From a bacterium (lineage in GTDB: Bacteria; RBG-13-61-14; DATKZS01), in the NCBI GenBank assembly GCA_035527835.1, contig DATKZS010000109.1, forward strand, positions 819-64,818: a DNA stretch of 64,000 nucleotides. Direction: 5' to 3'. The notes under the pieces were generated by a model that searched no databases, was not told the DNA's origin, and was given only the letters and a program-made list of their open reading frames with translations. Below are positions 1 through 54,435 of this stretch, in pieces. Position 1 is the stretch's first letter, and the number at the start of each line of letters is the position of its first letter. The translations under genes and the position numbers were made by a program.

Positions 1-42
1 AAAGGTGGTTGGTGGTACTTAATCATAATCTGTTAAGATTCC

Positions 43-1179
43 TTAGGCAATCGCATCGTTTATTCCCCACTTCGGCGGATACCAATAATTGATTTTATTT
101 AGTTTGGGTTTGAAAATCTGCTTAATCCTTTTCCTCTTGTTGTTACCTTGAATATCCGGATGAGCAATCCTCGCATATTTAGATATTTCGCAAAAAAGAT
201 TCTGGCAATCAACAAGCTTAAGTCTTCTGCCCCAGATAGTCTTAAATTGTATATCGAGCATATTGAAAAATTCATCCTGTCTTTCTGTAACCATCCTTAT
301 GAGATCCATCTCGTTAATTCCACCTAGATCGGAGAAGCACTTTCTAATCCCATCAATAGCTCCCGGCCCAGGGATAACAAATTGCATTTCAGAGAAGTTT
401 AAGACCTTACTGTAGTTAATATCGGTAACTAACTGAAAGGCCAGGAAGTCTCCTATTAGAGGATAAAATTTCAGTAGCTCAAAGGCATGCTCCATGCTTT
501 CAGACTCTGATAATTTTAAGGGAAGATCGTCCTCAATCATCATTTCAATTAATCTTAATATGTTTCTATGTTTCCTTTTAAGACGTAACCCTTTCGCCCT
601 TGAGGGCATGATATAAGCGGCAGAGAAAATTGGGGATCCTGAACGCATCGCTTTCATTAATATCGAATCAAAGCATTTATATGAATAATCAGCATAATTA
701 ATTGTTCCAACTTCCTTGCTTATTATTTCCCATGTCTCGATCTTGTTGAATAGCCTAAAAAGCAATATTCGAAACACGGTATCACTATTAGACCAATCTC
801 CATTATAAATTACATTTCTTATCATATACTGGCTCACGCGGTCAGATGCCCGATATGCATTTGTAAACTTGTATTTCTGTAGAATTTTATCTTCTGTCCA
901 TGGGGGCCTTTCGTTTGAAAGTCTTCTGAAAAATATATTTTGTCTTTCAGCCGCAAACCTCCAAAAAGTCTCAAACACTTTTGTCGGCTTTGCTGGAAAT
1001 AAGCGGGAATAAAGATCGGCATTGTTCAGTTGTTTACCATAATGCTCCTTTTCTTCAAATGCCTCAAACGATCTCTGCAATGGAGTTTCAAAGGCATTAC
1101 TATTATTAATAAGAGATGATTCGGATTTTATCCCCCCTTTTTTCATGTCTTTTCCGCTTCTTTGTTCTCTTTGTTCCAA
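43..1179 (-). CDS. hypothetical protein (378 aa) in low-GC island; possibly nucleotide/DNA-modification related
   Basis: Long ORF in a region of clearly lower GC than the rest of the window, with an AT-rich, Lys/Asn/Ile-rich composition. Its 3' end overlaps the next ORF's 5' end by 37 nt. I could not assign any family with confidence. Confidence 0.5.
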   Translation of the reverse strand: MEQREQRSGKDMKKGGIKSESSLINNSNAFETPLQRSFEAFEEKEHYGKQLNNADLYSRLFPAKPTKVFETFWRFAAERQNIFFRRLSNERPPWTEDKILQKYKFTNAYRASDRVSQYMIRNVIYNGDWSNSDTVFRILLFRLFNKIETWEIISKEVGTINYADYSYKCFDSILMKAMRSGSPIFSAAYIMPSRAKGLRLKRKHRNILRLIEMMIEDDLPLKLSESESMEHAFELLKFYPLIGDFLAFQLVTDINYSKVLNFSEMQFVIPGPGAIDGIRKCFSDLGGINEMDLIRMVTERQDEFFNMLDIQFKTIWGRRLKLVDCQNLFCEISKYARIAHPDIQGNNKRKRIKQIFKPKLNKINYWYPPKWGINDAIA

Positions 1180-1547
1180 TCAGGAATTGTCTCCTTAAGC
1201 TTACTAATGAATTCTGAAGCATCTTTCTTTTTGACCTTGCCTGGAGCCGCAACTGTTGCTATGCAATGCACAGTTGTGAGCTGCAATCCCATTTCATGCG
1301 CCATGAACTGTCCCAATTGATAAAGGCCGAGATAATTTCCATATGCCCTTTCAAAGATGTGTTGCTTCGCGTAAAGTCCGATCACGATAAGATCGTTCTC
1401 CTCAGGAGAAAACAAGACATGCTGAAGGCAAGGAAAGCCCCTTCGCCTTTGATGAGAATGATCCAAGGCCGGGTCAAATATCGCTGCCTGAAGCGCGCTT
1501 CGGCGATGGTTATCTTTGTCTACAAAGGTTTCTATTATATGATCCAA
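1143..1547 (-). CDS. nucleoside 2-deoxyribosyltransferase-like (NDT/DNPH1-fold) protein, 134 aa
   Basis: The segment NDLIVIGLYA...AHEMGLQ...APGKV resembles the NDT core NDIMLGVYI...GMELGYA...GK with its catalytic Glu. The gene lies in the same low-GC island and is co-oriented with the 378-aa ORF. Confidence 0.4.
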   Translation of the reverse strand: MDHIIETFVDKDNHRRSALQAAIFDPALDHSHQRRRGFPCLQHVLFSPEENDLIVIGLYAKQHIFERAYGNYLGLYQLGQFMAHEMGLQLTTVHCIATVAAPGKVKKKDASEFISKLKETIPDWNKENKEAEKT

Positions 1548-1586
1548 TTGATTAATTGGATGATCCTTTGAGCTATGAGCGGGGCA

Positions 1587-1803
1587 GGGGGTCAGACCCT
1601 GACTTGTTAGTTTAATTGCTGCCTCCCGCTCCCGATAAAAGCCGTTCCCTGCCGCCTCGCCTCGAAGGCGCGCCGGCGCTTTGGATTGGGGCGGGGGGTC
1701 AGACCCTGACTTGCTGACTTGTTAGTTTAATTGCTGCCTCCCGCTCCCAATGAAAGCTGTTCCCTGCCGCCTCGCCTCGAAGGCGCGCCGGCGCTTTGGA
1801 TTG
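1587..1803. repeat. tandem direct repeat, 2 copies of about 102-111 bp
   Basis: Copy 1 runs about 1587-1688 and copy 2 about 1693-1803. They are nearly identical, differing by an 8-nt insertion (cttgctga) and a few substitutions. Each copy begins with a hairpin-capable GGGGTCAGACCCTGAC. Confidence 0.85.
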
Positions 1804-1976
1804 CGCAAGCTTGCTTGCGCTTTGGTTCCGGGAGCTTGCTCCCGGATGGATTGAAAAGCTTGTTCCGGGGACCGGCAAGCAAGCTTGCCGATCTAAAGCG
1901 GATGATCCGCCTCAGGCGGCGGCAAGCCGCTTGCAGCGGCGCAACCGCGCGCACTCCAAATCGCTCCCCGCCGAAA

Positions 1977-2290
1977 TTTCAAACCACAAACCTCAAACCC
2001 CAAACCTCAAACCTCTTCTCCCCTTGGTGTCTTGGTGGTTTTCTTTCTCTTCTCTCTTCTTCCCCTCTTCTCAATTACCTTCATACCCTTGGTGTCTTGG
2101 TGGTTCTCTTCTTCTTCTCTTCTCTTCTCCCCTCTTCCCCGCCCTTATACCAACATCCATTGCAAACGCAAGCAGATATTATCGGTAAAATTTACCTGTC
2201 GGGGTGCGACGTTTTTACATATTATAGGGGGGCAATTCGGGGTTTGAGGTTTGGGGTTTGTGGTCTGTGGTTGAACAGGGGAGAGGAGGA
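1977..2290. repeat. inverted pair of heptanucleotide tracts, (CAAACCY)n and its reverse complement (GGGTTTG-like), flanking a CT-rich core plus an AT-rich core
   Basis: Sequence caaacctcaaaccccaaacctcaaacc at 1981-2012 is mirrored by gggtttgaggtttggggtttgtgg at 2239-2262. Between them lie two copies of ccttggtgtcttggtggtt (about 2024 and 2090). Confidence 0.7.
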
Positions 2291-2619
2291 GAAAAAAGTG
2301 TATAGGCACGCTCAACAAGGGCCTCGAAAGCGGTTATTTGGGTGCGACGTTTCGTGGCCTGATTTGTGGGACAGAGTGGCCCGGGTTTCAGGCCGCGGGT
2401 GGCCCGGACGGTGGGACGCGGGAGGCCGGAGATTGGGCCAGCCGTGGTCCAGTTCAGGGTCTTCGCGGCCTGGGCCCTGGGCCTCAAAATTCAGGCCACG
2501 GGCGGCCAACTCCCGGATTTCTTTGGACCCCGGGTCTAAAACGGGGGAAAATTTTCCGGGAAACGGCCTCTGCGGCCTAAATTTGACGACAGTGGTCAAG
2601 GCCCAAATTTTTTTCTTCC

Positions 2620-2850
2620 ATTTGCTTCCCCGTGTTCCCCGTTCCTCGTTCCGAGTTCCCCTCTCCCCGTTCCCCGCTCGTCGCCCCTCGCTCCCCGCTC
2701 CTCGCTCCTGGCTTCCTGCTTCTTGCCCCTGGCTTCTTGCTTCTGGATTCTTGCTTCTGGCTTCTGGATTCTTGCTTCTTGCTTCTGGATTCTTGCTTCT
2801 GGCCCCTGGCTGCTGGCTACTGGCTACGGGCTTCTATCGGCTTCGCGGAT
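2620..2850. repeat. long degenerate heptanucleotide tandem tract (CGTTCCC / CGCTCCT / TGCTTCT / GGATTCT units)
   Basis: Period-7 units can be read across about 230 bp. The region is non-coding, and the overlapping ORFs 1731..2873 and 2632..2913 are low-complexity artefacts. Confidence 0.7.
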
Positions 2851-2888
2851 TTGCTCAGCGGCGGCCGGCGTGATAATTTTTATAGGTT

Positions 2889-4586
2889 ATGGCGGAGAAC
2901 AAGATGGAGCTGATGAAGATTGCGGACAGCGGGGACCTGGCGGAGGTTCCGTTCGGTCGGGTGTTTTACCGTTTTTGCCGGGAGAAGCGGACCGGTGTTC
3001 TGGATGTTCGGGACAAGCCGGCGGCCGGGGGCGGCAGGATTTTGAAGCGGGTGATGATGGTTGAGGGCTCGCGGTTCGCGGCTCAGGGCGGGAGCGCGAT
3101 GGAGACGCTGCCGCAGATCCTGTTGGACCAGGGCAAGCTGACCCCGGATGGTTTTGAGGCGCTGAAGGCGGAGTTGAAGGGCGATTGGGGGAAGATGGAG
3201 CAGAAGGTGCTGGCGGGCGCGGTGGTGCCGGGGTCGGAGATCCCGGAGCTTCTGGCGCTGCAGGCGGAACTGAAGGTGCGGTCGCTGCTGTGCCTGTTCC
3301 GCGGGCATTACGATTTCAAGCCCCAGCCGGTTTCGCAGGTTATGGGCAAGCACATCCTGATGCCGTTCGGGGTTGAAAAGGCTCTGTTGGAGGGCGCGAT
3401 CGAGCACTACCCGGCGGCGCGGATCAATAAGGAGTTTCCGGGGATCGAGAAGAAGAATTTCCGGCCGGCGGGTGATTTCAAGGAACGGATCGGCGGGTTC
3501 GGGCTGCCGCCGAGCGTTCTGCGGTGGCTGCGGTCGTCGCCGGAGTCGTTTTCGTGGGACGGGTTGTTGCAGGGCGCGCCGGTGGGTGCGGAGCAGGCGG
3601 CGGTGATGCTGCTGGCGCTTTATTTCACCGAGGTGATCGTTCTGGCGCGGGCGGACGATGATTTTCCGGTGGGGCGGGCATATCTGGAGGCGCGGGAGGA
3701 AGCGGTTTCCCGGGCGGAACAGAAAGAGGAGAAGCGGGCGGCCGCCGAGCTCAAGTCCGACGAGACCAAGGCGGAGAAGGAGGAGAAGAAGGCGGAGAAG
3801 TCGGCGGAGCCGAAGCTCCCGATCGAGGAGATGCTGGACAAGGAGATGAGCGACGCGGAGACGCTCAAGGAGATCGAGCGGCTGCTGACGACGGCGCACA
3901 ATACCAAGGGCACGTATTTCGATTTGCTGGGGCTGAAGGAGAGCACCCCGACCTCGAAGATCAAGCAGGTTTATTTCAAGTTCGCCAAGAAGTTCCACCC
4001 GGACGCGAACCCGGAGCTGTTCAAGGGCGAGGTCAAGGATCGGGTGGAGGAGTTGTTCACGAAGCTCTCCGAGGCCTACAACACGCTCGCGGACGGAGAG
4101 TCGCGGCAGCAGTACGCGAACTCGCTGAAGAGCCAGGTCTCGAAGCAGGACATGGAGAAGGGGCAGCGGGCGATCGAGGCGGAGATGGATTTCCAGAAGG
4201 CGGAGGTCCTGCTCAAGCGCTCGGCGTGGGCCGAGGCCGCGGGGCTGTTGGAGCGCGCGGCGCAGCTCCAGGCGGACGAGCCGGAGTACGGGCTGTACCT
4301 GGCGTGGGCGCGCTACAAGCAGAAGGGGCCGTCGGAGGCCGCGCGGGCGCAGAAGGCGATCAAGGCGGCGCTGGACAAGCGGCCCAAGGTGGCGGACGGC
4401 TATTATTACCTGGGCCAGTTGGCCAAGGACGAGGGGAACCTGGACAAGGCCGAGGAATATCTCAGCAAGGCCTCGCAAATGAAGCCGCACGATATTGACA
4501 TCAAGCGCGAGCTCCAGCTCATGCAGCGGCGCCGGGTCAAGGAGGCCACCACCAAAAAGGGCGGGCTGTTCGGGAAGAAGAAGTGA
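2889..4586 (+). CDS. DnaJ (J-domain) protein with DUF4388-like N-terminus and C-terminal TPR repeats
   Basis: J-domain signature YFDLLGL...KKFHPDANPE with the HPD tripeptide is present. The C-terminus has a TPR-like AxxAxxYY..G...G pattern, and there is a charged Lys/Glu-rich linker. Confidence 0.7.
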   Translation: MAENKMELMKIADSGDLAEVPFGRVFYRFCREKRTGVLDVRDKPAAGGGRILKRVMMVEGSRFAAQGGSAMETLPQILLDQGKLTPDGFEALKAELKGDWGKMEQKVLAGAVVPGSEIPELLALQAELKVRSLLCLFRGHYDFKPQPVSQVMGKHILMPFGVEKALLEGAIEHYPAARINKEFPGIEKKNFRPAGDFKERIGGFGLPPSVLRWLRSSPESFSWDGLLQGAPVGAEQAAVMLLALYFTEVIVLARADDDFPVGRAYLEAREEAVSRAEQKEEKRAAAELKSDETKAEKEEKKAEKSAEPKLPIEEMLDKEMSDAETLKEIERLLTTAHNTKGTYFDLLGLKESTPTSKIKQVYFKFAKKFHPDANPELFKGEVKDRVEELFTKLSEAYNTLADGESRQQYANSLKSQVSKQDMEKGQRAIEAEMDFQKAEVLLKRSAWAEAAGLLERAAQLQADEPEYGLYLAWARYKQKGPSEAARAQKAIKAALDKRPKVADGYYYLGQLAKDEGNLDKAEEYLSKASQMKPHDIDIKRELQLMQRRRVKEATTKKGGLFGKKK

Positions 4587-4644: not shown

Positions 4645-4693
4645 TCATGACTCATCAATTTTTACTTTTTACTTTTTACCTTTTACTTTTGTC
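4645..4693. repeat. heptanucleotide tract (TTTTACY)n abutting the PHP gene start
   Basis: Sequence tttttactttttactttttaccttttacttttg lies immediately before the ATG at 4694. No Shine-Dalgarno is present. Confidence 0.6.
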
Positions 4694-5245
4694 ATGAAGT
4701 GCGCATTACACGTCCATACCAACCTCTCCGACGCGGCCCTCACCCCGGATGAAGTGTTGAAGATTTACGCGGACCTCGGGTTCGGGATGGTGGCCATCAC
4801 GGACCACGAGTTCCTGCTCCGCGACAACTACGTCGCGCTGGTGCAGGGGGCCAGGCACCGCGGGATGGCGGTGGCGGCGGGGGTCGAGGTGGACTGGGAG
4901 CCGTGGAACTACCACCACCTGCTGCGCATCTCCGGCACGCGCGAGACGCTGCACGTGCTGGCGCACCCCGGCGCGTATTACCTGGAAATCGAGGAGGTGA
5001 ACGCGCGGCTCGGGTCAACGCCTTTTGCCGTGGACGCGGTCGAGGTGACGCACCGCGGCTTTTATACTCCGAAATACGACACGGACCTGATCGCCGCGCC
5101 CAGGATCGCCACCGACGACGCGCACGAGCCCCACGAGTGCGGCCGCGCCTGGATCGAAATGGCCGACACCCGCGACCTGGACCGGGCGCTCCGGGCCGTG
5201 AAGGCCGGGGACTTCGAGGTGAGGTTCTTCAGAAATAGTAGATAG
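4694..5245 (+). CDS. PHP-domain metal-dependent phosphoesterase
   Basis: The N-terminal HVHTNLSD motif and the later ITDHE motif are typical of the PHP family. Confidence 0.7.
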   Translation: MKCALHVHTNLSDAALTPDEVLKIYADLGFGMVAITDHEFLLRDNYVALVQGARHRGMAVAAGVEVDWEPWNYHHLLRISGTRETLHVLAHPGAYYLEIEEVNARLGSTPFAVDAVEVTHRGFYTPKYDTDLIAAPRIATDDAHEPHECGRAWIEMADTRDLDRALRAVKAGDFEVRFFRNSR

Positions 5246-5294
5246 TAGCAAGTAGCCGGTAGCCAGGGAAATGCTTCAATCTGTTTGGCTCTCA

Positions 5295-5398
5295 TTCTTC
5301 AGCCCTGAAAGGGCCAAAATAAGATAGCCCAGGGTTGGCCGTCCTCGGCCTACCCTGGGATATCGGAGCCCATAATATCCTTTTCAGCCCTGAAAGGG
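5295..5398. repeat. two copies of a roughly 30-bp direct repeat, each carrying the hairpin AGCCCTGAAAGGGC
   Basis: Sequence tcttcagccctgaaagggccaaaataagat at about 5295 matches ttttcagccctgaaagggcgaaataaaaat at about 5368. Both lie downstream of the PHP gene. Confidence 0.6.
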
Positions 5399-5576
5399 CG
5401 AAATAAAAATGGTCCCTTGCGCGCGTTATTCGCTGAATAATCATCTTTGATTCGGATACACCACAATAGAGAAGAAAGGCAAGGATGAAGTACAGAGGCC
5501 GATGCAATTAGATTTCATCCTTCACCCTTCATACTTTTTTTACTTTCGCCCCGCCATCCACCGGCGGTGACATATC

Positions 5577-6134: not shown

Positions 6135-6275
6135 GACTTGAGGCTTCTGGGATGTATTTAGACCCTGAAAGGACGATTATGATCCGATGGCGCGGTGATG
6201 GTAGAATATCGCTAATTTATATCATGCACTTTTCGAGATCTCGCCGGAGCCAGTTCCGGTCAAGAGGAAATCAAC

Positions 6276-9200
6276 ATGGCCGATGAAAAGGCTATACTTG
6301 AAGCGCTGCTGACCTTCGCTGACACCGTAACGGCCAAGATGACCACTCTGACCCCGGGTGAGCCGGAAGATCAATTGCGCGCCCCTTTTGAAACATTTAT
6401 TCTCGAAGTCGGACGTGTCCTTTTCCGTAAAATCATCTGCACAGGAGAAACCAGGCTGCCGGGCCGGATTGGGAAGCCGGATTACGCCGTCCATGCAGAT
6501 GATCTATTAGCCGGCTACGTGGAAATGAAAGCCCCCGGCGTCGGCGCGGACCCCGGCCGCTTCTCCGGCCACAACCGCGATCAATGGAAACGCTTCAAGG
6601 CGATCCCCAATCTCATCTACTGCGATGGAAATGAATGGGGATTGTTCCGCAACGGCGAAAAGATCGGCTCAATCATCCGTCTATCAGGTGACGTGGCCGC
6701 CGACGGCAAGAAGGCCGTGACCTCGGAGAACGCCCGCTCCATAACAAAACTCCTGACCGACTTTCTTTCCTGGAAGCCCATCATTCCCACGACATCAAAG
6801 GGCGAAATAGACTTCAAGGGGTTCGCCGACCTGCTGGCCCCGTTGTGCCGGATGCTGCGCGATGACGTGACCGACGCGCTCAAGGACCCGCAATCGCCCC
6901 TCGTCCAACTGGCCAAAGACTGGCGCCAGCTCCTCTTCCCCGATGCCCCGGATGAGCAGTTCGCCGACGCCTACGCTCAGACCGTTACCTTCGCTCTGCT
7001 GCTGGCCCGCAGCGAGGGCGCCGATCCGCTCACCCTCGACAATGCCGAGAAAGCCTTATCCGCGGAACACGGTCTGCTCTCCCGCGCACTCCAGGTCTTG
7101 ACCGATCCCGGAGCTCAATCTGAGATCTCCGCCTCGCTCAATCTGATCATGCGCGTCGTCGCCGAAGTCCCGCCCCTCTCGCTGTCCGGCCCTCAAGACC
7201 CCTGGCTTTACTTCTATGAATATTTTCTCGCCGCCTACGACCCCAAACTGCGCAAGGACGCCGGGGCCTACTACACTCCAGTCGAGGTCGTCCGCGCCCA
7301 GGTCCGGCTTATTGACGACCTGCTGGTGAACCGGCTGGGCAAGCCGCTGGGCTTCGTTGATTCCGGAGTCGTCACGCTCGACCCCGCCGCCGGCACCGGC
7401 ACCTATCTGCTCGGCGTCATCGGGCACGCCCTCGGCCGGATCGAGGCAGAACAGGGCGCCGGCGCCGTAGCGGGGATGGCCACCGCGCTGGCCGCCAACC
7501 TCTACGGCTTCGAGCTCATGGTCGGACCTTACGCCGTAACCGAATTGCGAGTCAGCCGCGCACTAAAGAACAAAGGCGCCAGCTTGCCCCCTGAAGGCAC
7601 GCGCGTTTATTTGACCGACACGCTGGAAAGCCCAAACGCCAAGCCGTCAGAACTGCCTTTCTACCTCAAGCCCATCGCAGAGCAGCACGCCAAGGCGCTC
7701 AAAGTCAAGATCAATGTCCCGGTCATCGTCTGCCTGGGCAATCCGCCCTACGACCGCCATGAAGCCGCCACCGCCGAAAACCAGGCCCGCACCGGGGGGT
7801 GGGTCCGATGGGGAGACGACGGCAAGGGTTATCGCCTGAAGGATGACAGGGAAAAAGATGATGAATTTGAAGACGCTATCTTCCATGACTTTCTCGAATC
7901 CGCCAAAGTGGCAGGCCACGGCGTCCACGTTAAAAACCTCTACAACCTCTATGTCTATTTTTGGCGATGGGCACTATGGAAGGTTTTCGAGCACTCAACA
8001 GCATCCGGGCCGGGCGTCGTCAGCTTTATCAGCGCTTCAAGCTACCTCGACGGCGACGCCTTCTGCGGGATGCGCGAATACCTGCGCCGCGTCTGCGATG
8101 AAATCTGGATACTAGACCTCGGCGGCGAAGGGCGCGGCACGCGCAAGAGTGATAACGTATTCGCCATCCAAACGCCCGTCGCCATCGGCATCGCCGTCCG
8201 CTCGGGCAAGGCTAAAAAGGAAAAGCCCGCCAAGGTCCATTACTCCAGCATTGAAGGCGCACGAGATGATAAGCTCGCGAAGCTGGACGCCATTAAAGAC
8301 TTCAAGAGCTTGAAGTGGCTGGACTGCCCCGAAGGTTGGCAGACCCCTTTCCGCCCGGCGGGCAAAGGCAAATATTTCGAATGGCCGCTCCTGACCGATC
8401 TCATGCCGTGGCAACATTCGGGAGCTCAGTTAAAGCGAACCTGGCCTATTTCTCATGAGCAGGAGACGCTTAAGAAAAGATGGCGGGCGCTTCTTGGTTC
8501 AAAGGATATGAAACAAGCTTTTCGCGAAACCAGGGACCGAAAAGTCGTATCTCCTTGTCCCCAGGCACCGCCCAATGGCAATGGTGAAAAAGCATTGAAG
8601 TCCTTGCCCCAAGACTCAGAAGCGCCTCCCATTGTGCGTTATGCTTATCGCTCATTCGATCGCCAATGGGTCTTTGCCGACAACCGTTTAGGGGATTTCC
8701 TGCGCCCGGTACTGTGGGGGATACATGGCGAACGGCAGGTGTATCTGACAAGCCTGTTGACTAAATTCCTCGGTGCAGGTCCGGCGCTCACGACTTGCGC
8801 AGCTATTCCCGACTTGGACCATTTCTCGGCACGCGGGGCTAAGGATGTCGTCCCTCTCTACCGCACCGCAGACGCATCCGAGGCGAATGTCCTGCCCGGC
8901 CTGCTCGATCTGCTGGGCAAAGCGTACAGGCGCGTGGTGAAGCCGGAAGACTTCCTGGCCTACATCTATGGCGCGTTGGCGCAGCCGGCCTTCACTGGAC
9001 GTTTTCGAAACGAATTGGAAACGCGCGAGCTGCGCGTGCCGGTCACGAAGAATGCCGCGCTTTTCGAGAAGGTGCGCGACATCGGCTCGCGATTACTGTG
9101 GCTGCACACCTATGGCGAGCGGTTTGTGCCGAAGGGTGAAAAGCGCGGCCAGGTCCCGCGCGGCTCTGCTAAGTGCACCAAGGCCGTACCTGGCGGTCAG

Positions 9201-9617
9201 GAAGGCTATCCGGAGTCTTTCGAGTATGACGATGCAACGCGGACGCTCCGTGTCGGCGCGGGCGAGTTCCGGCCCGTGGCGCCCGAAGTATTCGCTTTTG
9301 AGGTTTCTGGGCTCAAGGTGGTGCAGTCCTGGCTCAAATACCGAATGAAGAAAGGCGCGGGCAAGAAGTCCTCGCCTCTGGACGACATCCGGCCGGAGCG
9401 TTGGACCAGTCAATTCACCACCGAACTTCTAGAGCTGCTCTGGGTGTTGGAAGCGACGGTGGAAGGTTATCCCGAGCAGGCGCGGCTTTTGGATGCCGTG
9501 ATTAAAGGTCCCTGCTTCACCGCCCATGAGCTGCCCCCCGTCCCGGCCGCCGCCCGCAAACCTCCTTCCTCGCGGGAACTCGATCTTCTTGACCAGATGG
9601 AGCCGGATGAGGGTTGA
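6276..9617 (+). CDS. type IIL (MmeI-family) restriction-modification enzyme: N-terminal PD-(D/E)xK nuclease, N6-adenine methyltransferase, and C-terminal TRD
   Basis: The N-terminus APFETFILEV ... DYAV ... YVEMKAPG parallels the MmeI D-x(n)-EMK nuclease motif. Methyltransferase motif I LDPAAGTGTYLLG and motif IV NPPY (N6A class) are present. A long C-terminal region follows. Confidence 0.65.
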   Translation: MADEKAILEALLTFADTVTAKMTTLTPGEPEDQLRAPFETFILEVGRVLFRKIICTGETRLPGRIGKPDYAVHADDLLAGYVEMKAPGVGADPGRFSGHNRDQWKRFKAIPNLIYCDGNEWGLFRNGEKIGSIIRLSGDVAADGKKAVTSENARSITKLLTDFLSWKPIIPTTSKGEIDFKGFADLLAPLCRMLRDDVTDALKDPQSPLVQLAKDWRQLLFPDAPDEQFADAYAQTVTFALLLARSEGADPLTLDNAEKALSAEHGLLSRALQVLTDPGAQSEISASLNLIMRVVAEVPPLSLSGPQDPWLYFYEYFLAAYDPKLRKDAGAYYTPVEVVRAQVRLIDDLLVNRLGKPLGFVDSGVVTLDPAAGTGTYLLGVIGHALGRIEAEQGAGAVAGMATALAANLYGFELMVGPYAVTELRVSRALKNKGASLPPEGTRVYLTDTLESPNAKPSELPFYLKPIAEQHAKALKVKINVPVIVCLGNPPYDRHEAATAENQARTGGWVRWGDDGKGYRLKDDREKDDEFEDAIFHDFLESAKVAGHGVHVKNLYNLYVYFWRWALWKVFEHSTASGPGVVSFISASSYLDGDAFCGMREYLRRVCDEIWILDLGGEGRGTRKSDNVFAIQTPVAIGIAVRSGKAKKEKPAKVHYSSIEGARDDKLAKLDAIKDFKSLKWLDCPEGWQTPFRPAGKGKYFEWPLLTDLMPWQHSGAQLKRTWPISHEQETLKKRWRALLGSKDMKQAFRETRDRKVVSPCPQAPPNGNGEKALKSLPQDSEAPPIVRYAYRSFDRQWVFADNRLGDFLRPVLWGIHGERQVYLTSLLTKFLGAGPALTTCAAIPDLDHFSARGAKDVVPLYRTADASEANVLPGLLDLLGKAYRRVVKPEDFLAYIYGALAQPAFTGRFRNELETRELRVPVTKNAALFEKVRDIGSRLLWLHTYGERFVPKGEKRGQVPRGSAKCTKAVPGGQEGYPESFEYDDATRTLRVGAGEFRPVAPEVFAFEVSGLKVVQSWLKYRMKKGAGKKSSPLDDIRPERWTSQFTTELLELLWVLEATVEGYPEQARLLDAVIKGPCFTAHELPPVPAAARKPPSSRELDLLDQMEPDEG

Positions 9618-11836: not shown

Positions 11837-11887
11837 GGAGGGCTTGAGGCTTGGGGCTTGGGGCTGCGCCGGAGAGGGGAGTAAGAC
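11837..11887. repeat. heptanucleotide tract (GGCTTGR)n between the histidine kinase and response regulator genes
   Basis: Sequence gggcttgaggcttggggcttggggctg. Confidence 0.55.
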
Positions 11888-12352: not shown

Positions 12353-12451
12353 GGGAGGCACAGGGCTTGGGGCTTGAGGCTTGGGGCTTGAGGATAGAGA
12401 CAAGGCATCTTGGCCTCACCCCTCACGCCTCACGCCTCAAGCCTCAGTCCA
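12353..12451. repeat. inverted heptanucleotide-repeat pair, (GGCTTGR)n and (CCTCACG)n, between convergent genes; likely a bidirectional terminator
   Basis: Sequence gggcttggggcttgaggcttggggcttgagg is followed by cctcacccctcacgcctcacgcctcaagcctcag. The two are imperfect reverse complements of each other. Confidence 0.6.
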
Positions 12452-16226: not shown

Positions 16227-17159
16227 ATGGGTAAGGCAAATAAGCAAAAGCCCGATAGCAAGGCAAAGGCTGGATGTTTTAGGTATCCTCTAATTGTTAT
16301 TATTGCCTTCTTTATCTATGCCCCTCCTGTTTGTGTGAGCAAGTCTCAAAACCATATATTCGTAGATGGTCCTTCTGATCTTTATGATATCCATAGCCTG
16401 GCTCGGAGAGGCAAGACCCCTCTTGTCATTATCTACACCCTATTTAGTCCCAAATTGGTGAATTCGATTGATGATGGTAAGACCCCTCTCCATCTAGCAG
16501 CGGCAAACGGCCATACTTTCATGGTTCACTATTTGGTTTGGATAAAGGCTGACGTAAACAATAGGGGTCGAACCACGCCGCTAGAAGAAGCTCTCATCAG
16601 CGCCGCCAATATTAATCGCGCCAACCGCATTGCAAAGTATCTTATTGATCATGGATCTAAAATAAATCCTAAATCGGGTAGAGCGCCATTAAGCGTTGCT
16701 GTTTCCTATTGTAATACAGAAATGGCAAGCTATCTAATTGATAAAGGGGCGGATGTCAATTATGGCTCTCCGATTCTGCTCGCTACTCGTTGTGATGGTA
16801 ACATGTTAAAACTACTTGTGGATCATGGAGCAAATATTAACGCACGTTATAGGGATGGGAGGACTTTCCTGCACCAATTGGTTCTTGAAATGCCGAGTCC
16901 TCGATATGAACTCTTTCCTATACTTGCCGAAAATGGGATTGATCTCAATGCACAGGACGAACAAGGAAATACCTTTGTTCATTTGGCAGTTAATAAGGGA
17001 GATATAAAATTTATAGAACTTGCCATTGAGTATGGCGCTGCTGTGAATATCAATAATAATGAAGGAAAATCTCCTCTTGACCTAGCATTGGAAAAACCCA
17101 AGTATAAGATAACTGAGATTATAATTAACCAGCTGATAAATGAAGCTTCCATAAAATAG
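16227..17159 (+). CDS. ankyrin-repeat protein with N-terminal signal/TM segment (low-GC island)
   Basis: Ankyrin motifs GKTPLHLAAANGH...LV are repeated several times. The region is AT-rich relative to its flanks, and a GGAGGG Shine-Dalgarno precedes the start. Confidence 0.8.
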   Translation: MGKANKQKPDSKAKAGCFRYPLIVIIAFFIYAPPVCVSKSQNHIFVDGPSDLYDIHSLARRGKTPLVIIYTLFSPKLVNSIDDGKTPLHLAAANGHTFMVHYLVWIKADVNNRGRTTPLEEALISAANINRANRIAKYLIDHGSKINPKSGRAPLSVAVSYCNTEMASYLIDKGADVNYGSPILLATRCDGNMLKLLVDHGANINARYRDGRTFLHQLVLEMPSPRYELFPILAENGIDLNAQDEQGNTFVHLAVNKGDIKFIELAIEYGAAVNINNNEGKSPLDLALEKPKYKITEIIINQLINEASIK

Positions 17160-17231: not shown

Positions 17232-17392
17232 TCATCGCCCGGTCAATTGCTCCATTTTTTCGGGATAGCGGGTGCCTTGGACGGTGATCTGGGAGGCGGC
17301 GGTTTGGATGTCGCGGAGGTCGGCGGAGGTGAGCTCGACCTTGACCGCTCCGATGTTCTCGTCCAGGCGCTCGAGTTTGGGGCGTGACGGGT
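17232..17392 (-). pseudogene. 3' remnant of an aldo/keto reductase gene
   Basis: Minus-strand translation gives ...PKLERLDENIGAVKVELTSADLRDIQTAASQITVQGTRYPEKMEQLTGR* — the typical AKR C-terminus (the preceding 5' codons run into the arm of the hairpin element at 17389). The 5' three-quarters of the gene is missing and its place is taken by the hairpin element at 17389. Confidence 0.55.
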
Positions 17393-17475
17393 CAGTGCTT
17401 CAGTTTTCAGTTAATCTGGGGAATGTTCATGACCTGGGGAGACTCGCGATTAACTGAAAACTGAAGCACTGACCC
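17389..17475. repeat. long inverted-repeat hairpin element (copy 1 of 2)
   Basis: Sequence GGGTCAGTGCTTCAGTTTTCAGTTAAT ... ATTAACTGAAAACTGAAGCACTGACCC forms a roughly 27-bp stem. A near-identical architecture is found at 46717-46803. Confidence 0.75.
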
Positions 17476-17550
17476 TGGCGACTTTTGCTGGACAGGGAGA
17501 TGTTGTAGCATGGAGACAAGGCGGGCCGGGGTCATCCGGAGGAAAACGTC

Positions 17551-19206: not shown

Positions 19207-19283
19207 GACAGGATTAACAGGATTTACAGGATGTCCGGAATACGCCTTCTCTTTTGTATCCTGTAAATCCTGTTAATCCTGTC
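19207..19283 (+). terminator. long hairpin downstream of the cNMP-binding gene
   Basis: Arm gacaggattaacaggatttacaggat pairs with atcctgtaaatcctgttaatcctgtc and is followed by aaaattttt. Confidence 0.5.
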
Positions 19284-27619: not shown

Positions 27620-27717
27620 GAATTTTCAACGCCAAGACGCAAAGACGCAACGTATTTTTTTATTTTCTTTTTTCTTGGCATCTTGGCGCCTTGGCATCTT
27701 GGCGTTAAAAATTCCCT
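27620..27717. repeat. palindromic GCCAAGACGCCAAGG-type element (copy 1 of 3)
   Basis: Sequence gggaattttcaacgccaagacgcaaagacgcaacg, then an AT-rich loop, then cttggcatcttggcgccttggcatcttggcgttaaaaattccc. It lies between the lipA stop and the maoC start. Confidence 0.65.
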
Positions 27718-28652: not shown

Positions 28653-28717
28653 GGCGGTTAAATTTTATGGCCGGCGGCCGGGCGATGCAATGAGCCGATA
28701 AAAGCAGACAAGAAGAT

Positions 28718-28800
28718 TACCGCCAAGACGCCAAGGCCTCCAAGAACGCCAAGAAAAAATATTTTTATTAATTCTTGGCAACCTTGGCGTCTTGGCGGTG
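28718..28800. repeat. palindromic GCCAAGACGCCAAGG-type element (copy 2 of 3)
   Basis: Sequence accgccaagacgccaaggcctccaagaacgccaagaaaaaa, then an AT loop, then cttggcaaccttggcgtcttggcggtg. Confidence 0.65.
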
Positions 28801-29000
28801 ACCTTTTTGCCGATACCTTTCGAGAACGGACTCTCCCTGATCATCGCAGCGGCACCAGCCCTTTCTTGCTGGCCGGACGGGTGACGGCGGCGCTGATCGG
28901 GACGGGGCCGGCTCGCGTTACCATTGCCGCTGATCTGGGTTATACTGAATTTAAGAATATCTGAGATGGTTCGTCAAGGGAAGGGTAATAAGGAGCGCGG

Positions 29001-33998: not shown

Positions 33999-34028
33999 AG
34001 GCCGCCCCCGGACCGAAGCACGGAAGAT

Positions 34029-34105
34029 ACCGCCAAGACGCCAAGGCCGCCAAGGAGAATAAGATTTATTTTTCTTGGCGGTCTTGGCGTCATGGCTGCT
34101 TGGCG
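34029..34105. repeat. palindromic GCCAAGACGCCAAGG-type element (copy 3 of 3)
   Basis: Sequence accgccaagacgccaaggccgccaaggagaataag, then an AT loop, then cttggcggtcttggcgtcatggctgcttggcg. It lies between convergent genes. Confidence 0.65.
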
Positions 34106-34136
34106 TAATTCTTATTGTCTCGTCCTTCCAGGAAAG

Positions 34137-41459: not shown

Positions 41460-42386
41460 ATGCCAAAAAAACGAGTTGAACTGGTAACTCATATATTCAA
41501 AGGCGCTCGTTTCGAGGATCACGGCATTGATATAGACGTCCTTGAGGAGTTGATTGTATATAAAAAAATCTTGGTTGAAACAGCCAAGGAACTTTGGCGA
41601 CGTCATAACCCTGATCGTCAAAGATTGCCGAAAAATTTTGAAGATTCTCTCTGCATCAAGTTTTATGAGCTTCGGGAAGGCTCAACTGGCGTTCCGATGA
41701 TGCGGGAAATTGAATATGATAACGGCGAACTCCCTCTTCCACGGCCTGAGGATGAACTGGATGAGGCTGTGAAGGTTGTTGCGGAAGCGGAAGATGCGGC
41801 CAATAATGATTACCCGCTCCCGGATAATTTTCCTAAAAATATCATTCCACTGTTCGATAAATATGGAGACAGTTTGAGAGAAGACGAGAGTTTTGAGCAC
41901 CAGCCGGCAAACTCCGAACGACGTATCATTTATAATAAGAAGACTCGTGAACGGTTGCATAGTTGGTCAGACGGTCAATACGAAGACATGATTGAGCTGA
42001 GCGGGGAAGTCCGAGCCGCAGACCTTGACCAAGGAAATTTCACCATTCGTCTGGATGACGGGACCAAAGTCGCCGGAAAATTTAATCCGAGCCAGGAAGA
42101 AGAGGTAACGCTCGCACTCCGCGAACATGAGAAGAAGAGGCTAAGCGTGAAAGGTAGAGGAGGGTTTTCCTCGCCCGAAGGCAAGCTGAGACGTATTATC
42201 GCCGTGGAGCAAATGATAATTCATCAAGGTAATGGCGACGTTTTTGATGCCAGCGCCCGACCCATTTGGGAAGTCGTTTCCGAGATTGGGGCCTCCGTTC
42301 CCGAAGAGGAATGGGCCAAGGTTCCCACCGATCTTTCGAAAAACCTTGATCATTACTTGTACGGCGCACCCAAGGATGCGAAATGA
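41460..42386 (+). CDS. hypothetical acidic protein (308 aa), putative partner of the downstream PIN toxin (low-GC island)
   Basis: AT-rich codon usage unlike its flanks. The stop overlaps the PIN gene start (ATGA). The C-terminus ends ...KVPTDLSKNLDHYLYGAPKDAK. Confidence 0.5.
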   Translation: MPKKRVELVTHIFKGARFEDHGIDIDVLEELIVYKKILVETAKELWRRHNPDRQRLPKNFEDSLCIKFYELREGSTGVPMMREIEYDNGELPLPRPEDELDEAVKVVAEAEDAANNDYPLPDNFPKNIIPLFDKYGDSLREDESFEHQPANSERRIIYNKKTRERLHSWSDGQYEDMIELSGEVRAADLDQGNFTIRLDDGTKVAGKFNPSQEEEVTLALREHEKKRLSVKGRGGFSSPEGKLRRIIAVEQMIIHQGNGDVFDASARPIWEVVSEIGASVPEEEWAKVPTDLSKNLDHYLYGAPKDAK

Positions 42387-42793
42387 AAAAAATTTTCGCC
42401 GATTCCTCTTATTGGATTGCTCTTCTTAATCCTCGAGATGAACATCATGATAAGGCAAAAATAGTTTCTTCTTCTCTCGGACAGATACATATCGTCACCA
42501 GCGACATGGTTTTAACGGAATTCTTAAATTCCTTTTCCACTAGAGGAACTTTATTGCGAAAAAGGGCAGCAGAAACCGCCAAGGGAATCTTGAACAATCC
42601 CAATGTGAAAGTTGTTGCTCAAACCAGGGAGCAATTCAATGAAGCCCTCTCGCTATTTTCCGACCGAGAGGACAAGGAATGGGGCCTTACTGACTGTTCC
42701 TCCATTAAGATCTGCATTGATAACAAGATCAATGAGGTGTTAACCGCCGACCATCATTTTCAACAAGCCGGCTTGATCGCGTTGTTGTTATAG
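42383..42793 (+). CDS. PIN-domain ribonuclease (VapC-like toxin)
   Basis: The N-terminal FADSSYWIAL motif (first acidic residue) and the later acidic residues TSD and LTDC are present. The length is about 136 aa. Confidence 0.75.
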   Translation: MKKIFADSSYWIALLNPRDEHHDKAKIVSSSLGQIHIVTSDMVLTEFLNSFSTRGTLLRKRAAETAKGILNNPNVKVVAQTREQFNEALSLFSDREDKEWGLTDCSSIKICIDNKINEVLTADHHFQQAGLIALLL

Positions 42794-46716: not shown

Positions 46717-46803
46717 GGGTCAGAGCTTCAGTTTTCAGTTAATGAGAGGATTGCCGAAAGCTGGAGCGATCCCGACATTAACTGAAAACTGAAGCTCTGA
46801 CCC
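46717..46803. repeat. long inverted-repeat hairpin element (copy 2 of 2)
   Basis: Sequence GGGTCAGAGCTTCAGTTTTCAGTTAAT ... ATTAACTGAAAACTGAAGCTCTGACCC. It has compensatory changes relative to the copy at 17389. Confidence 0.75.
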
Positions 46804-46835
46804 TCACCACCGCACAACCGGCAATGGCTTCCGGC

Positions 46836-47012: not shown

Positions 47013-47110
47013 GGATGCCGGAAGCGGAGAGGAGCGAGGAGCGAGGAGCGAGGAACGAGGGAAGCCCCGGCCTCAAGCCTCACGCCGGCCGCCGCACGTC
47101 TCTTCCCTCG
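47013..47110. repeat. inverted heptanucleotide-repeat pair, (GAGGARC)n and its complement
   Basis: Sequence gaggagcgaggagcgaggaacgaggg ... cctcgatcttcgctccccgcccgtcgctcctc. The same unit family occurs as its reverse complement at 2640-2700. Confidence 0.6.
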
Positions 47111-47148
47111 ATCTTCGCTCCCCGCCCGTCGCTCCTCTTTGAGGACTA

Positions 47149-54389: not shown

Positions 54390-54435
54390 GGGGCCAGAGG
54401 CTTGGGGCTTGGGGCTTGAGGCTCGGGGCGCGGGA
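54390..54435. repeat. heptanucleotide tract (GGCTTGR)n
   Basis: Sequence ggccagaggcttggggcttggggcttgaggctcgggg. It belongs to the same family as the tracts at 11840 and 12360. Confidence 0.6.

Follow-up and report, generated by a model that had tools for sequence, protein, structure and literature searches.

The longest intergenic region in a 64,000-nucleotide stretch of DNA from an uncultured bacterium (contig DATKZS010000109.1, positions 819 to 64,818; here called the window, with its first letter as position 1) is filled with tandem repeats, hairpins and mirrored heptamer arrays. This repeat block, which lies immediately upstream of a DnaJ-like gene, is probably an overgrown, fast-changing intergenic spacer and not a discrete functional element. 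The block is built of repeats and carries no coding signal, it takes part in an excess of period-7 arrays that extends over the window, its left edge falls on a truncated gene, it is absent from the nearest relative, and the variation between assemblies of the organism is concentrated in it. It belongs to a known class of bacterial heptanucleotide repeats. The initial annotation of the window, made from the letters alone, had described the block as a structured non-coding locus rather than random spacer. The block is indeed non-coding and its repeats are non-random, but no specific function proposed for it was supported by a test, and the contrast with random spacer is a false one, since ordinary spacers of this genome look like the block.

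The spacer (1416-2888) is 1473 bp long, while the next longest intergenic region of the window has 391 bp and the median is 107 bp. It is bounded on the left by minus-strand low-GC genes (43-1146 and 1143-1547) and on the right by the DnaJ-like gene, which also encodes DUF4388 and TPR domains. An open reading frame (ORF) of 380 aa spans positions 1731-2873, but its GC content is flat over the three codon positions (0.57/0.57/0.58), whereas the native genes typically have a third-position GC of 0.83-0.93, with two genes at 0.70-0.74. When 150-nt segments are scored in all six frames, the best frame in the block reaches at most 0.02 per codon; real genes have a mean of 0.49 and a 5th percentile of 0.18. 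No Pfam match was found for the block ORF. A low-complexity protein-coding gene is rejected on the flat codon-position GC, the non-gene codon scores and the missing Pfam match, and the earlier statement that the block holds no credible ORF is borne out by the first two. Three gene callers have turned the repeats into artefact proteins of 330-344 aa, which are now in protein databases (public calls at L001 2678-3712, L002 2707-3699 and L003 2-1030). The value of the block for annotation is mainly negative: it deserves no gene label, and labels of origin, attachment (att) site and RNA gene are also unwarranted.

All the repeats described in the initial annotation are present at or near the positions given for them and are far above chance (Table 1). 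The two tandem copies, first put at roughly 105 bp within 1587-1803 and each headed by a hairpin, have slightly longer units and start a few nucleotides earlier. They differ by 4 substitutions, and copy 2 also has an 8-nt internal duplication, CTGACTTG, at 1706-1721. The 17-mer GGGGGTCAGACCCTGAC has 2 sites in 64 kb, both at the heads of these copies, against an expectation of 0.08. A compensatory change among the 4 differences of the 115-nt units was considered and rejected, as it would support merely a 2-bp stem. In the adjoining hairpin run, GCGCAAGCTTGCTTGCGC (1803-1820) and CCGGGAGCTTGCTCCCGG (1828-1845) have perfect 7-bp stems with a CTTG loop between the arms, and the GCGCAAGCTTGCTTGCGC hairpin recurs in inverted orientation as GGCAAGCAAGCTTGCC (1874-1889). 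The neighbouring stems GCGCAAG/CTTGCGC and CCGGGAG/CTCCCGG are separated by three paired changes, and both are perfect. The perfect short palindromes reported for 1804-1900 therefore stand as perfect hairpin stems but, with their CTTG loops, not as strict palindromes.

The (CAAACCY)n array seen at about 1981 and its mirror image at about 2239 form an inverted repeat of 32 nt (1979-2015 and 2241-2272) that is 94% complementary, with the arms spaced 227 nt apart. The motif thought to be duplicated at 2206 and 2340 is GGGTGCGACGTTT, which has exactly two copies, at 2202 and 2340; the chance of an exact 13-mer repeat inside 1.4 kb is about 0.01-0.02 by our own estimate. The 65-bp tandem duplication was absent from the first list, and its copy number varies between haplotypes. 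The GGCC-rich segment and the heptamer tract that follows it are both present, although the tract is shorter than the 230 bp first reported. Its units drift from GTTCCCC through GCTCCTC to GCTTCTG/GATTCTT and GCTACTG, with a higher-order period of 21 bp. Tandem Repeats Finder (TRF) reports period-7 arrays in the block at 1979-2015, 2241-2272 and 2630-2835.

Table 1. Features of the repeat block, of its two flanks and of the related arrays elsewhere in the window
Feature	Position	Strand	Description
Tandem copies	1581-1688 (108 nt), 1688-1803 (116 nt)	+	Direct repeats, 97% and 96% identity; each opens with a GGGGGTCAGACCCTGAC hairpin
Hairpin run	1796-1900	+	Degenerate 25-nt units, about four in all, with 7-bp stems and CTTG loops
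Hypervariable centre	1852-2162		Second haplotype (L008) diverges here
(CAAACCN)5 array, left arm of inverted repeat	1979-2015	+	TRF, period 7, 5.3 copies
65-bp tandem duplication	2021-2150 (copies at 2021, 2086)	+	CCCTTGGTGTCTTGGTGGTT, then C/T-rich tract, 85% pyrimidine
AT-richer core	2141-2235		GC 0.43; holds first GGGTGCGACGTTT (2202-2214)
(GGTTTGN)5 array, right arm	2236-2272	+	In register with left arm, unit variants included
G/A-rich segment	2273-2352	+	Complementary to 2115-2137; holds second GGGTGCGACGTTT (2340-2352)
GGCC-rich segment	2353-2625	+	Imperfect hairpin of about 150 nt (2353-2503) and second hairpin (2504-2580); folding z = -3.7
Heptamer tract	2626-2835	+	About 30 units, 210 bp, pyrimidine-rich on + strand; length varies by assembly
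Putative promoter and Shine-Dalgarno	2851-2903	+	TTGCTC, 17-nt spacer, TGATAATTT; GGAG 8 nt before ATG at 2904
5'-truncated phage-type gene	1143 to about 1571-1575	-	Right end of the 2.3-kb low-GC remnant; truncation point is the left edge of the block
Mirrored pair	12363-12446		(GGGCTTG)n/(GCCTCAM)n
Mirrored pair	19208-19282		(ACAGGATTA)3 and complement
Mirrored pair	47029-47136		(GAGGAGC)n/(GCTCCYC)n
Palindromic element of about 80 nt, three copies	27622-27710, 28715-28803, 34023-34110		(CGCCAAGA)3, AT-rich loop of about 20 nt, (TCTTGGCG)3
Hairpin element of about 100 nt, two copies	17383-17480, 46728-46810		Arms GGGTCAGWGCTTCAGTTTTCAGTTAAT

Heptamer arrays are a feature of the window as a whole. 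The 64 kb hold 12 strict period-7 arrays (3 or more units, no more than 1 mismatch in any unit), whereas dinucleotide shuffles give 0.05. All 12 are in intergenic DNA, which makes up 11.5% of the window, and 6 of them lie outside the block. Periods 8 and 9 are represented by one array each, and the period-6 arrays are mostly coding. Mirrored arrays occur at 12363/12413, 19208/19258, 27629/27673, 28721/28770, 34030/34073 and 47029/47115, and the array type of 47029-47136 is also found in the block.

The long simple sequence repeats of bacteria are recognised by head-to-tail units of 5-11 nt that exceed chance and that, where the unit length is not a multiple of 3, stay out of coding DNA; the period-7 arrays of the window show both traits. 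Many bacteria are described as having an excess of heptanucleotide intergenic repeats, for which slippage of the polymerase is the explanation given (Mrazek et al. 2007, cited in PMC4679880 and PMC4692102); such repeats are known from Xanthomonas, where inverted pairs occur, and Nostoc (PMC4692102) and from Beggiatoaceae (PMC4679880). With the long simple sequence repeats of 5-11-nt units, such as the cyanobacterial STRR heptamers, GGGAATC of Xanthomonas and GGGGAYT of Nostoc, the arrays of the window share tandem 7-nt units that are exclusively intergenic, a strong period-7 excess, variation in sequence and apparently in length between close relatives, and occasional inverted pairs able to form stem-loops or cruciforms. 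The window differs in having many unrelated units and no dominant genome-wide heptamer, in a single tract that drifts through several units over 210 bp, in the joining of arrays with larger tandem duplications in a 1.5-kb spacer, and in its host, which is from an uncultured lineage close to candidate phylum RBG-13-61-14. This lineage can thus be added to the cyanobacteria, Xanthomonas, Beggiatoaceae and Geobacter as having the unexplained heptanucleotide-repeat habit, with an unusually high share of mirrored arrays.

Variation within the organism is concentrated in the block. In four assemblies compared over 6 kb, all differences from the window fall there. In contigs L001, L002 and L003 these are single-nucleotide polymorphisms at 2144 and 2475 and the length of the heptamer tract within 2732-2773, which is 21 bp greater in L001 and L002 and 42 bp smaller in L003, differences to which short-read mis-assembly could contribute. 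The repeats break short-read assemblies of this organism: contigs L003, L004 and L009 begin or end inside them, with L004 starting in the heptamer tract and L009 and L003 breaking at opposite ends of 1581-1803. Contig L008, from a further sample and a fifth assembly, shows no difference from the window over 1-1851 and 2163-2474 but has about 25 substitutions in between. It has a single 65-bp unit where the window has two, and a patch that replaces 1902-1916 contains GCGGCAAGCCGC and CGCACTCCAA twice each, where the window allele has each of them once, a few nucleotides away. Collapse during assembly is excluded for the L008 haplotype, since its 141-mers span the whole 130-bp duplication. These differences match the signatures expected of slippage, of tandem duplication and loss, and of templated copying of neighbouring sequence, and they provide a small natural record of spacer change in the form of 21-bp steps, gain or loss of 65 bp and copied patches.

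On its left, the block begins at a rearrangement scar and not at the terminus of an intact element: the break in the adjoining gene coincides with a jump in GC from about 0.43 to 0.63 at about position 1575 and with the start of the first tandem unit at 1581. In tblastn (E = 1.3e-10), residues 4-138 of this truncated gene align with residues from about 132 to 274 of a 288-aa protein on viral contig L154. Because the alignment begins at about residue 132 of the homologue, the first 130 or so codons of the phage-type gene are absent. The 288-aa protein is encoded two genes from a homologue of the kinase described below, and the truncated gene also has a weak match (E = 0.6) to residues 112-207 of the 325 of a CMP 5-hydroxymethylase in the PDB. 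The low-GC segment that it ends (GC 0.32-0.48) is only about 2.3 kb long, as judged from other assemblies of the same organism (window 1-1575 together with L001 96-2400, and L008). It encodes a full-length HMUDK_hel protein of 367 aa (the helical domain of 5-hydroxymethyldeoxyuridine (5-hmdU) DNA kinase, E = 5.7e-107), homologues of which, with up to 52% identity, occur in viral contigs that include some of 300-400 kb; a radical-SAM fragment of 147 aa and an ORF of 111 aa complete the remnant. A high-GC host gene ends just past the far side of the island, where contigs of several assemblies break. The remnant reads as a phage-type cassette for thymidine hypermodification in which the truncated gene is hydroxymethylase-like, and a Type ISP restriction-modification enzyme is encoded 5 kb away, at 6276-9617.

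This setting bears on the earlier proposal of an integration or attachment region. The block sits right at the boundary of the foreign low-GC DNA and the core genes, island and block are both missing from the closest relative, and the contig ends at the far side of the island would suit an attachment site or the end of a low-GC island. Such a role is nevertheless very improbable. The end of the island beside the block is a truncated gene, no integrase, tRNA or tRNA fragment was found at the block or the island, and no direct repeat of block sequence occurs in the 95 bp visible at the far end. The composition and the array types of the block are host-like. Two further low-GC islands, one with an ankyrin-repeat protein (16227-17159, GC about 0.45) and one with a 308-aa protein without known identity followed by a PIN-domain protein (41460-42793, GC about 0.50), are flanked by nothing similar, which answers the suggestion that the same block might accompany other islands.

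On the right, the DnaJ-like gene is a 565-aa ORF from position 2889, with its annotated start 15 nt downstream at 2904. Its promoter would lie at the right end of the block (Table 1); this putative site was read by eye, and a consensus promoter scan did not report it. In the closest relative (L005/L006), whose DnaJ-like protein is 70% identical, an alpha/beta-hydrolase gene lies 57 bp upstream of the DnaJ gene, and these 57 bp stand in place of the block, with neither block nor island at the locus. Nucleotide similarity to L005 begins at window position 2868, so that only the last 50 bp or so of the spacer are conserved; they share the motif GCGTGATAWTTTTTAWAGRTTATGGCG, which holds the presumed extended -10 element. 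An identity between the gene to the left of the island and this hydrolase was rejected, as the C-termini are unrelated, and no homologue of the hydrolase was found in the window. The orthologous spacer between the DnaJ and PHP genes has heptamer arrays here as well as in L005, but their units are unrelated; array formation is thus retained although the array sequences are replaced. An array precedes the start of the PHP gene in both organisms, the units again being different.

Orthologues of the DnaJ-like protein with 40-53% identity occur in metagenome-assembled genomes labelled 'bacterium' or 'Deltaproteobacteria', including RBG_13_61_14, which bears the name of a GTDB candidate phylum of freshwater and subsurface sediments (PMC11382960). 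RBG_13_61_14 has its own spacer of about 1.1 kb (L017 2620-3780), in another position, made of differing 6-9-nt arrays and a 21-nt tandem array. Its k-mer sharing with the block is below background and no homology was detected between the two; TGGTGTCNTGGT, common to both, was noticed post hoc and is treated as probable chance. Most other relatives have few arrays or none. The unit GCCTCAA is also arrayed in RBG_13_61_14 (L017 3004-3041), where chance sharing is possible given units of 7 nt, and at L017 10401-10834 a scaffold gap (a run of N) comes right after another heptamer array.

The growth of the block can be pictured as follows. A phage-derived cassette would have been acquired and would then have decayed, so that 5-hmdU DNA kinase-like and radical-SAM remains and half of a pyrimidine-hydroxymethylase-like gene were left at the junction, with the block as the low-constraint spacer beside them. 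Replication or repair in this organism may readily yield 7-nt (less often 8-9-nt) arrays and long palindromes with array arms. The spacer would then have changed by slippage within arrays, by tandem duplication of larger segments (of 115, 65, about 25 and 13 bp), and by inverted or templated copying of adjacent sequence when strands or templates switch at hairpins. These changes are presumably close to neutral; the spacer would be free to grow since only its last 50 bp or so, with the putative promoter and ribosome-binding site, are needed.

Several observations weigh against a freely growing spacer. The segments 1581-1851 and 2163-2625 are invariant among assemblies, although this says little since the coding flanks are also invariant. 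The stems stay perfect through three paired changes and the mirrored arms are in register, so the hairpins could be selected and not merely generated. The occurrence of CGCCAAGA arrays at three loci and of GGGCTTG at four suggests recognition or mobility over pure slippage. The copy-number differences in the heptamer tract could be partly short-read assembly error, and the uniqueness of the block units is provisional, its scope being 64 kb of this genome and a few relatives. The paired stem changes, the in-register arms and the recurrent array families could come from templated repair between arms or from recognition of hairpins. A stronger version holds that the period-7 (and 8-9) arrays and mirrored pairs are the footprint of a lineage-specific system, with a factor that recognises heptad-periodic DNA or RNA or an array-writing enzyme, for which the block would be a hub with maintained hairpin geometry. 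The perfect stems and in-register arms fit this view, as do array families at unlinked loci and array-rich spacers as far away as RBG_13_61_14, but it is distinctly unlikely.

The hairpins also raise the question of a transcribed structured RNA, which could be a small RNA made from the tandem 115-nt units and ending at the 1803-1845 hairpins, or a long pyrimidine-rich 5' leader of the DnaJ-like mRNA. The folding energies of the tested segments are low on both strands (z = -3.2 to -4.6 against shuffles; overall 3-4.6 standard deviations below them), but low energy follows automatically from the presence of inverted repeats. A promoter-like site (1516-1543, + strand) and terminator-like hairpins (1803-1820) frame the units, but such matches are as frequent in shuffles as in the block. 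In a search of the whole window with Rfam 15 at the gathering score, two tRNAs were the only matches and none fell in the block; permissive filters over 1400-3000 gave chance-level matches only, the best at 21 bits against a threshold of 46 (E at least 0.75). In L008, one change in the CAAACC arm is uncompensated in the other arm. A leader would have a parallel in pyrimidine-rich arrays that abut start codons elsewhere (4657-4690 before the ATG at 4694, and L005 2867-2894), as with the TAACTGA repeats of Beggiatoaceae (MacGregor 2015, PMC4679880), which likewise lie directly upstream of start codons. Here, however, there is no single conserved heptamer, and the tract of the block lies upstream of the putative promoter and does not abut a start codon. 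An RNA gene or leader is accordingly quite improbable, and the Rfam check proposed with it came out negative.

The heptamer arrays that end a few nucleotides before start codons without an obvious Shine-Dalgarno sequence are pyrimidine-rich at 4657-4690, 5516-5545 and 47100-47148 and at L005 2867-2894. Their position hints at a role in translation initiation.

A replication origin or partition site, also among the earlier proposals, is extremely improbable. The core between the repeats is AT-richer, the cumulative GC skew is lowest near 2000, and almost every gene downstream is encoded on the + strand. The skew minimum is uninformative, however, since it coincides with the edge of the window and with the foreign island. 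The DnaA box TTATCCACA has three matches with at most 1 mismatch in the window, all of them outside the block, at 16.4-16.8 kb. A parS-like site (TGTTTCACGTGAAACA, a 16-bp palindrome) was not found in the block either, with up to 4 mismatches allowed. Neither dnaA, dnaN nor parAB is among the flanking genes, and the 70% relative does without the block.

Another possible role is that of a regulatory array. The heptamer tract and the mirrored arrays would bind a global regulator or nucleoid protein that sets expression of the DnaJ-like gene, insulates it from the foreign cassette, or both, while 21-bp steps, equal to two helical turns, would keep the sites in phase. Some 16 bp separate the tract from the putative -35 element downstream of it, the length variants are multiples of 21 bp, and array families are present at several loci. 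In Geobacter metallireducens, tandem hepta- and octanucleotide sites of unknown function occur as pairs, with one site on each strand (Aklujkar et al. 2009, PMC2700814), and the authors read these comparable arrays as sites of a global regulator. Like the arrays here, the Geobacter classes 1-3 (GTTGCTYN x4, TCTCCGTS x3 and MTYCTGA x5) consist of 3-5 tandem units of 7-9 nt paired with their complement at a variable arm distance in intergenic DNA. They have 16-48 copies per class and a shared consensus, whereas the CAAACC pair is single-copy within 64 kb and its arms are 227 nt apart, so the Geobacter pattern fits the window families CGCCAAGA and GGGCTTG better than it fits the block. A regulatory array is rather unlikely for the block itself: the units drift along the tract with no single consensus, no CAAACC array lies elsewhere in the window, 57 bp of upstream DNA are enough for this gene in the 70% relative, and the 21-bp steps follow from the 21-bp higher-order repeat of the tract. 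No candidate binding protein was identified. The arrangement of a phase-variable contingency locus, where a repeat between the -35 and -10 elements or in the ORF switches expression by its copy number, is not seen either, as the tract ends at 2835, upstream of the presumed -35 element at 2851.

Dispersed palindromic families in the window, one of about 80 nt in three copies and one of about 100 nt in two, point to small mobile elements. The former is a dispersed family and not the product of independent slippage, since two copies have near-identical 30-nt arms. The block could accordingly hold decayed palindromic elements of the REPIN, MITE or BIME type, nested or adjacent, with the head of the 115-bp unit derived from the hairpin family at 17383 and 46728. 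The unit head GGGTCAGACCCTGACTTGTTAGTTTAAT and the hairpin arm GGGTCAGWGCTTCAGTTTTCAGTTAAT are alike at about 20 of 28 positions and have a similar upstream GGGGCG, but this likeness is weak and was found post hoc. With the REP, BIME and REPIN clusters of proteobacteria the block shares an intergenic mosaic of short palindromic units that form long hairpins, and the window shares dispersed families. The block components, however, are not dispersed in the sequence examined, the arms are internally periodic, and neither a RAYT nor a transposase gene was seen in the window. The polymorphisms are local duplication and slippage and not insertion or excision. An origin of the block from such elements is unlikely.

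The copies that a mobile or otherwise functional element might have left were looked for more widely. The 115-bp unit, for which a BLASTN check had been proposed as a 105-bp unit, has no second copy in the window or the fetched loci, and the same holds for the 65-bp unit and the GGCC hairpins. In blastn, the block matches the rest of the window only by short array-type alignments at 47029-47136 and by one 16-mer of borderline significance, and it has no match in the phage and plasmid records; two parts of the 115-bp unit, scanned for exactly in viral contigs, had 0 matches. A metagenome scan with CAAACCNCAAACCNCAAACC gave no source contig and no block homologue among the matches listed. Since the units are unique in all reachable sequence and the block is absent from the nearest relative, a functional reading is weakened by the refuting condition that the initial annotation itself had set. 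The listed matches to CAAACCNCAAACCNCAAACC (L034-L113) include dozens of contigs of 1-5 kb, mostly of wastewater type, in which (CAAACCN)n at one terminus faces the complementary array at the opposite one; these contigs resemble the telomere-capped mini-chromosomes of a eukaryotic microbe and are unrelated to the window.

The arms of the hairpin element of about 100 nt include the heptamer TAACTGA, known from Beggiatoaceae and cyanobacteria. One copy of this element lies beside the low-GC ankyrin gene and the other upstream of tRNA-Gly. The GGCTTGR/GCCTCAM family is present at four loci of the window (11840-11866, 12362-12447, 54397-54423 and 47060-47085), two of them between convergent genes. 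A hairpin motif, TTCAGCCCTGAAAGGGC, recurs in two adjacent spacers (5290-5306, 5386-5402 and 6166-6182), with the variant TAGACCCTGAAAGGAC, and both this motif and the head of the 115-bp unit contain CAG(A)CCCTGA.

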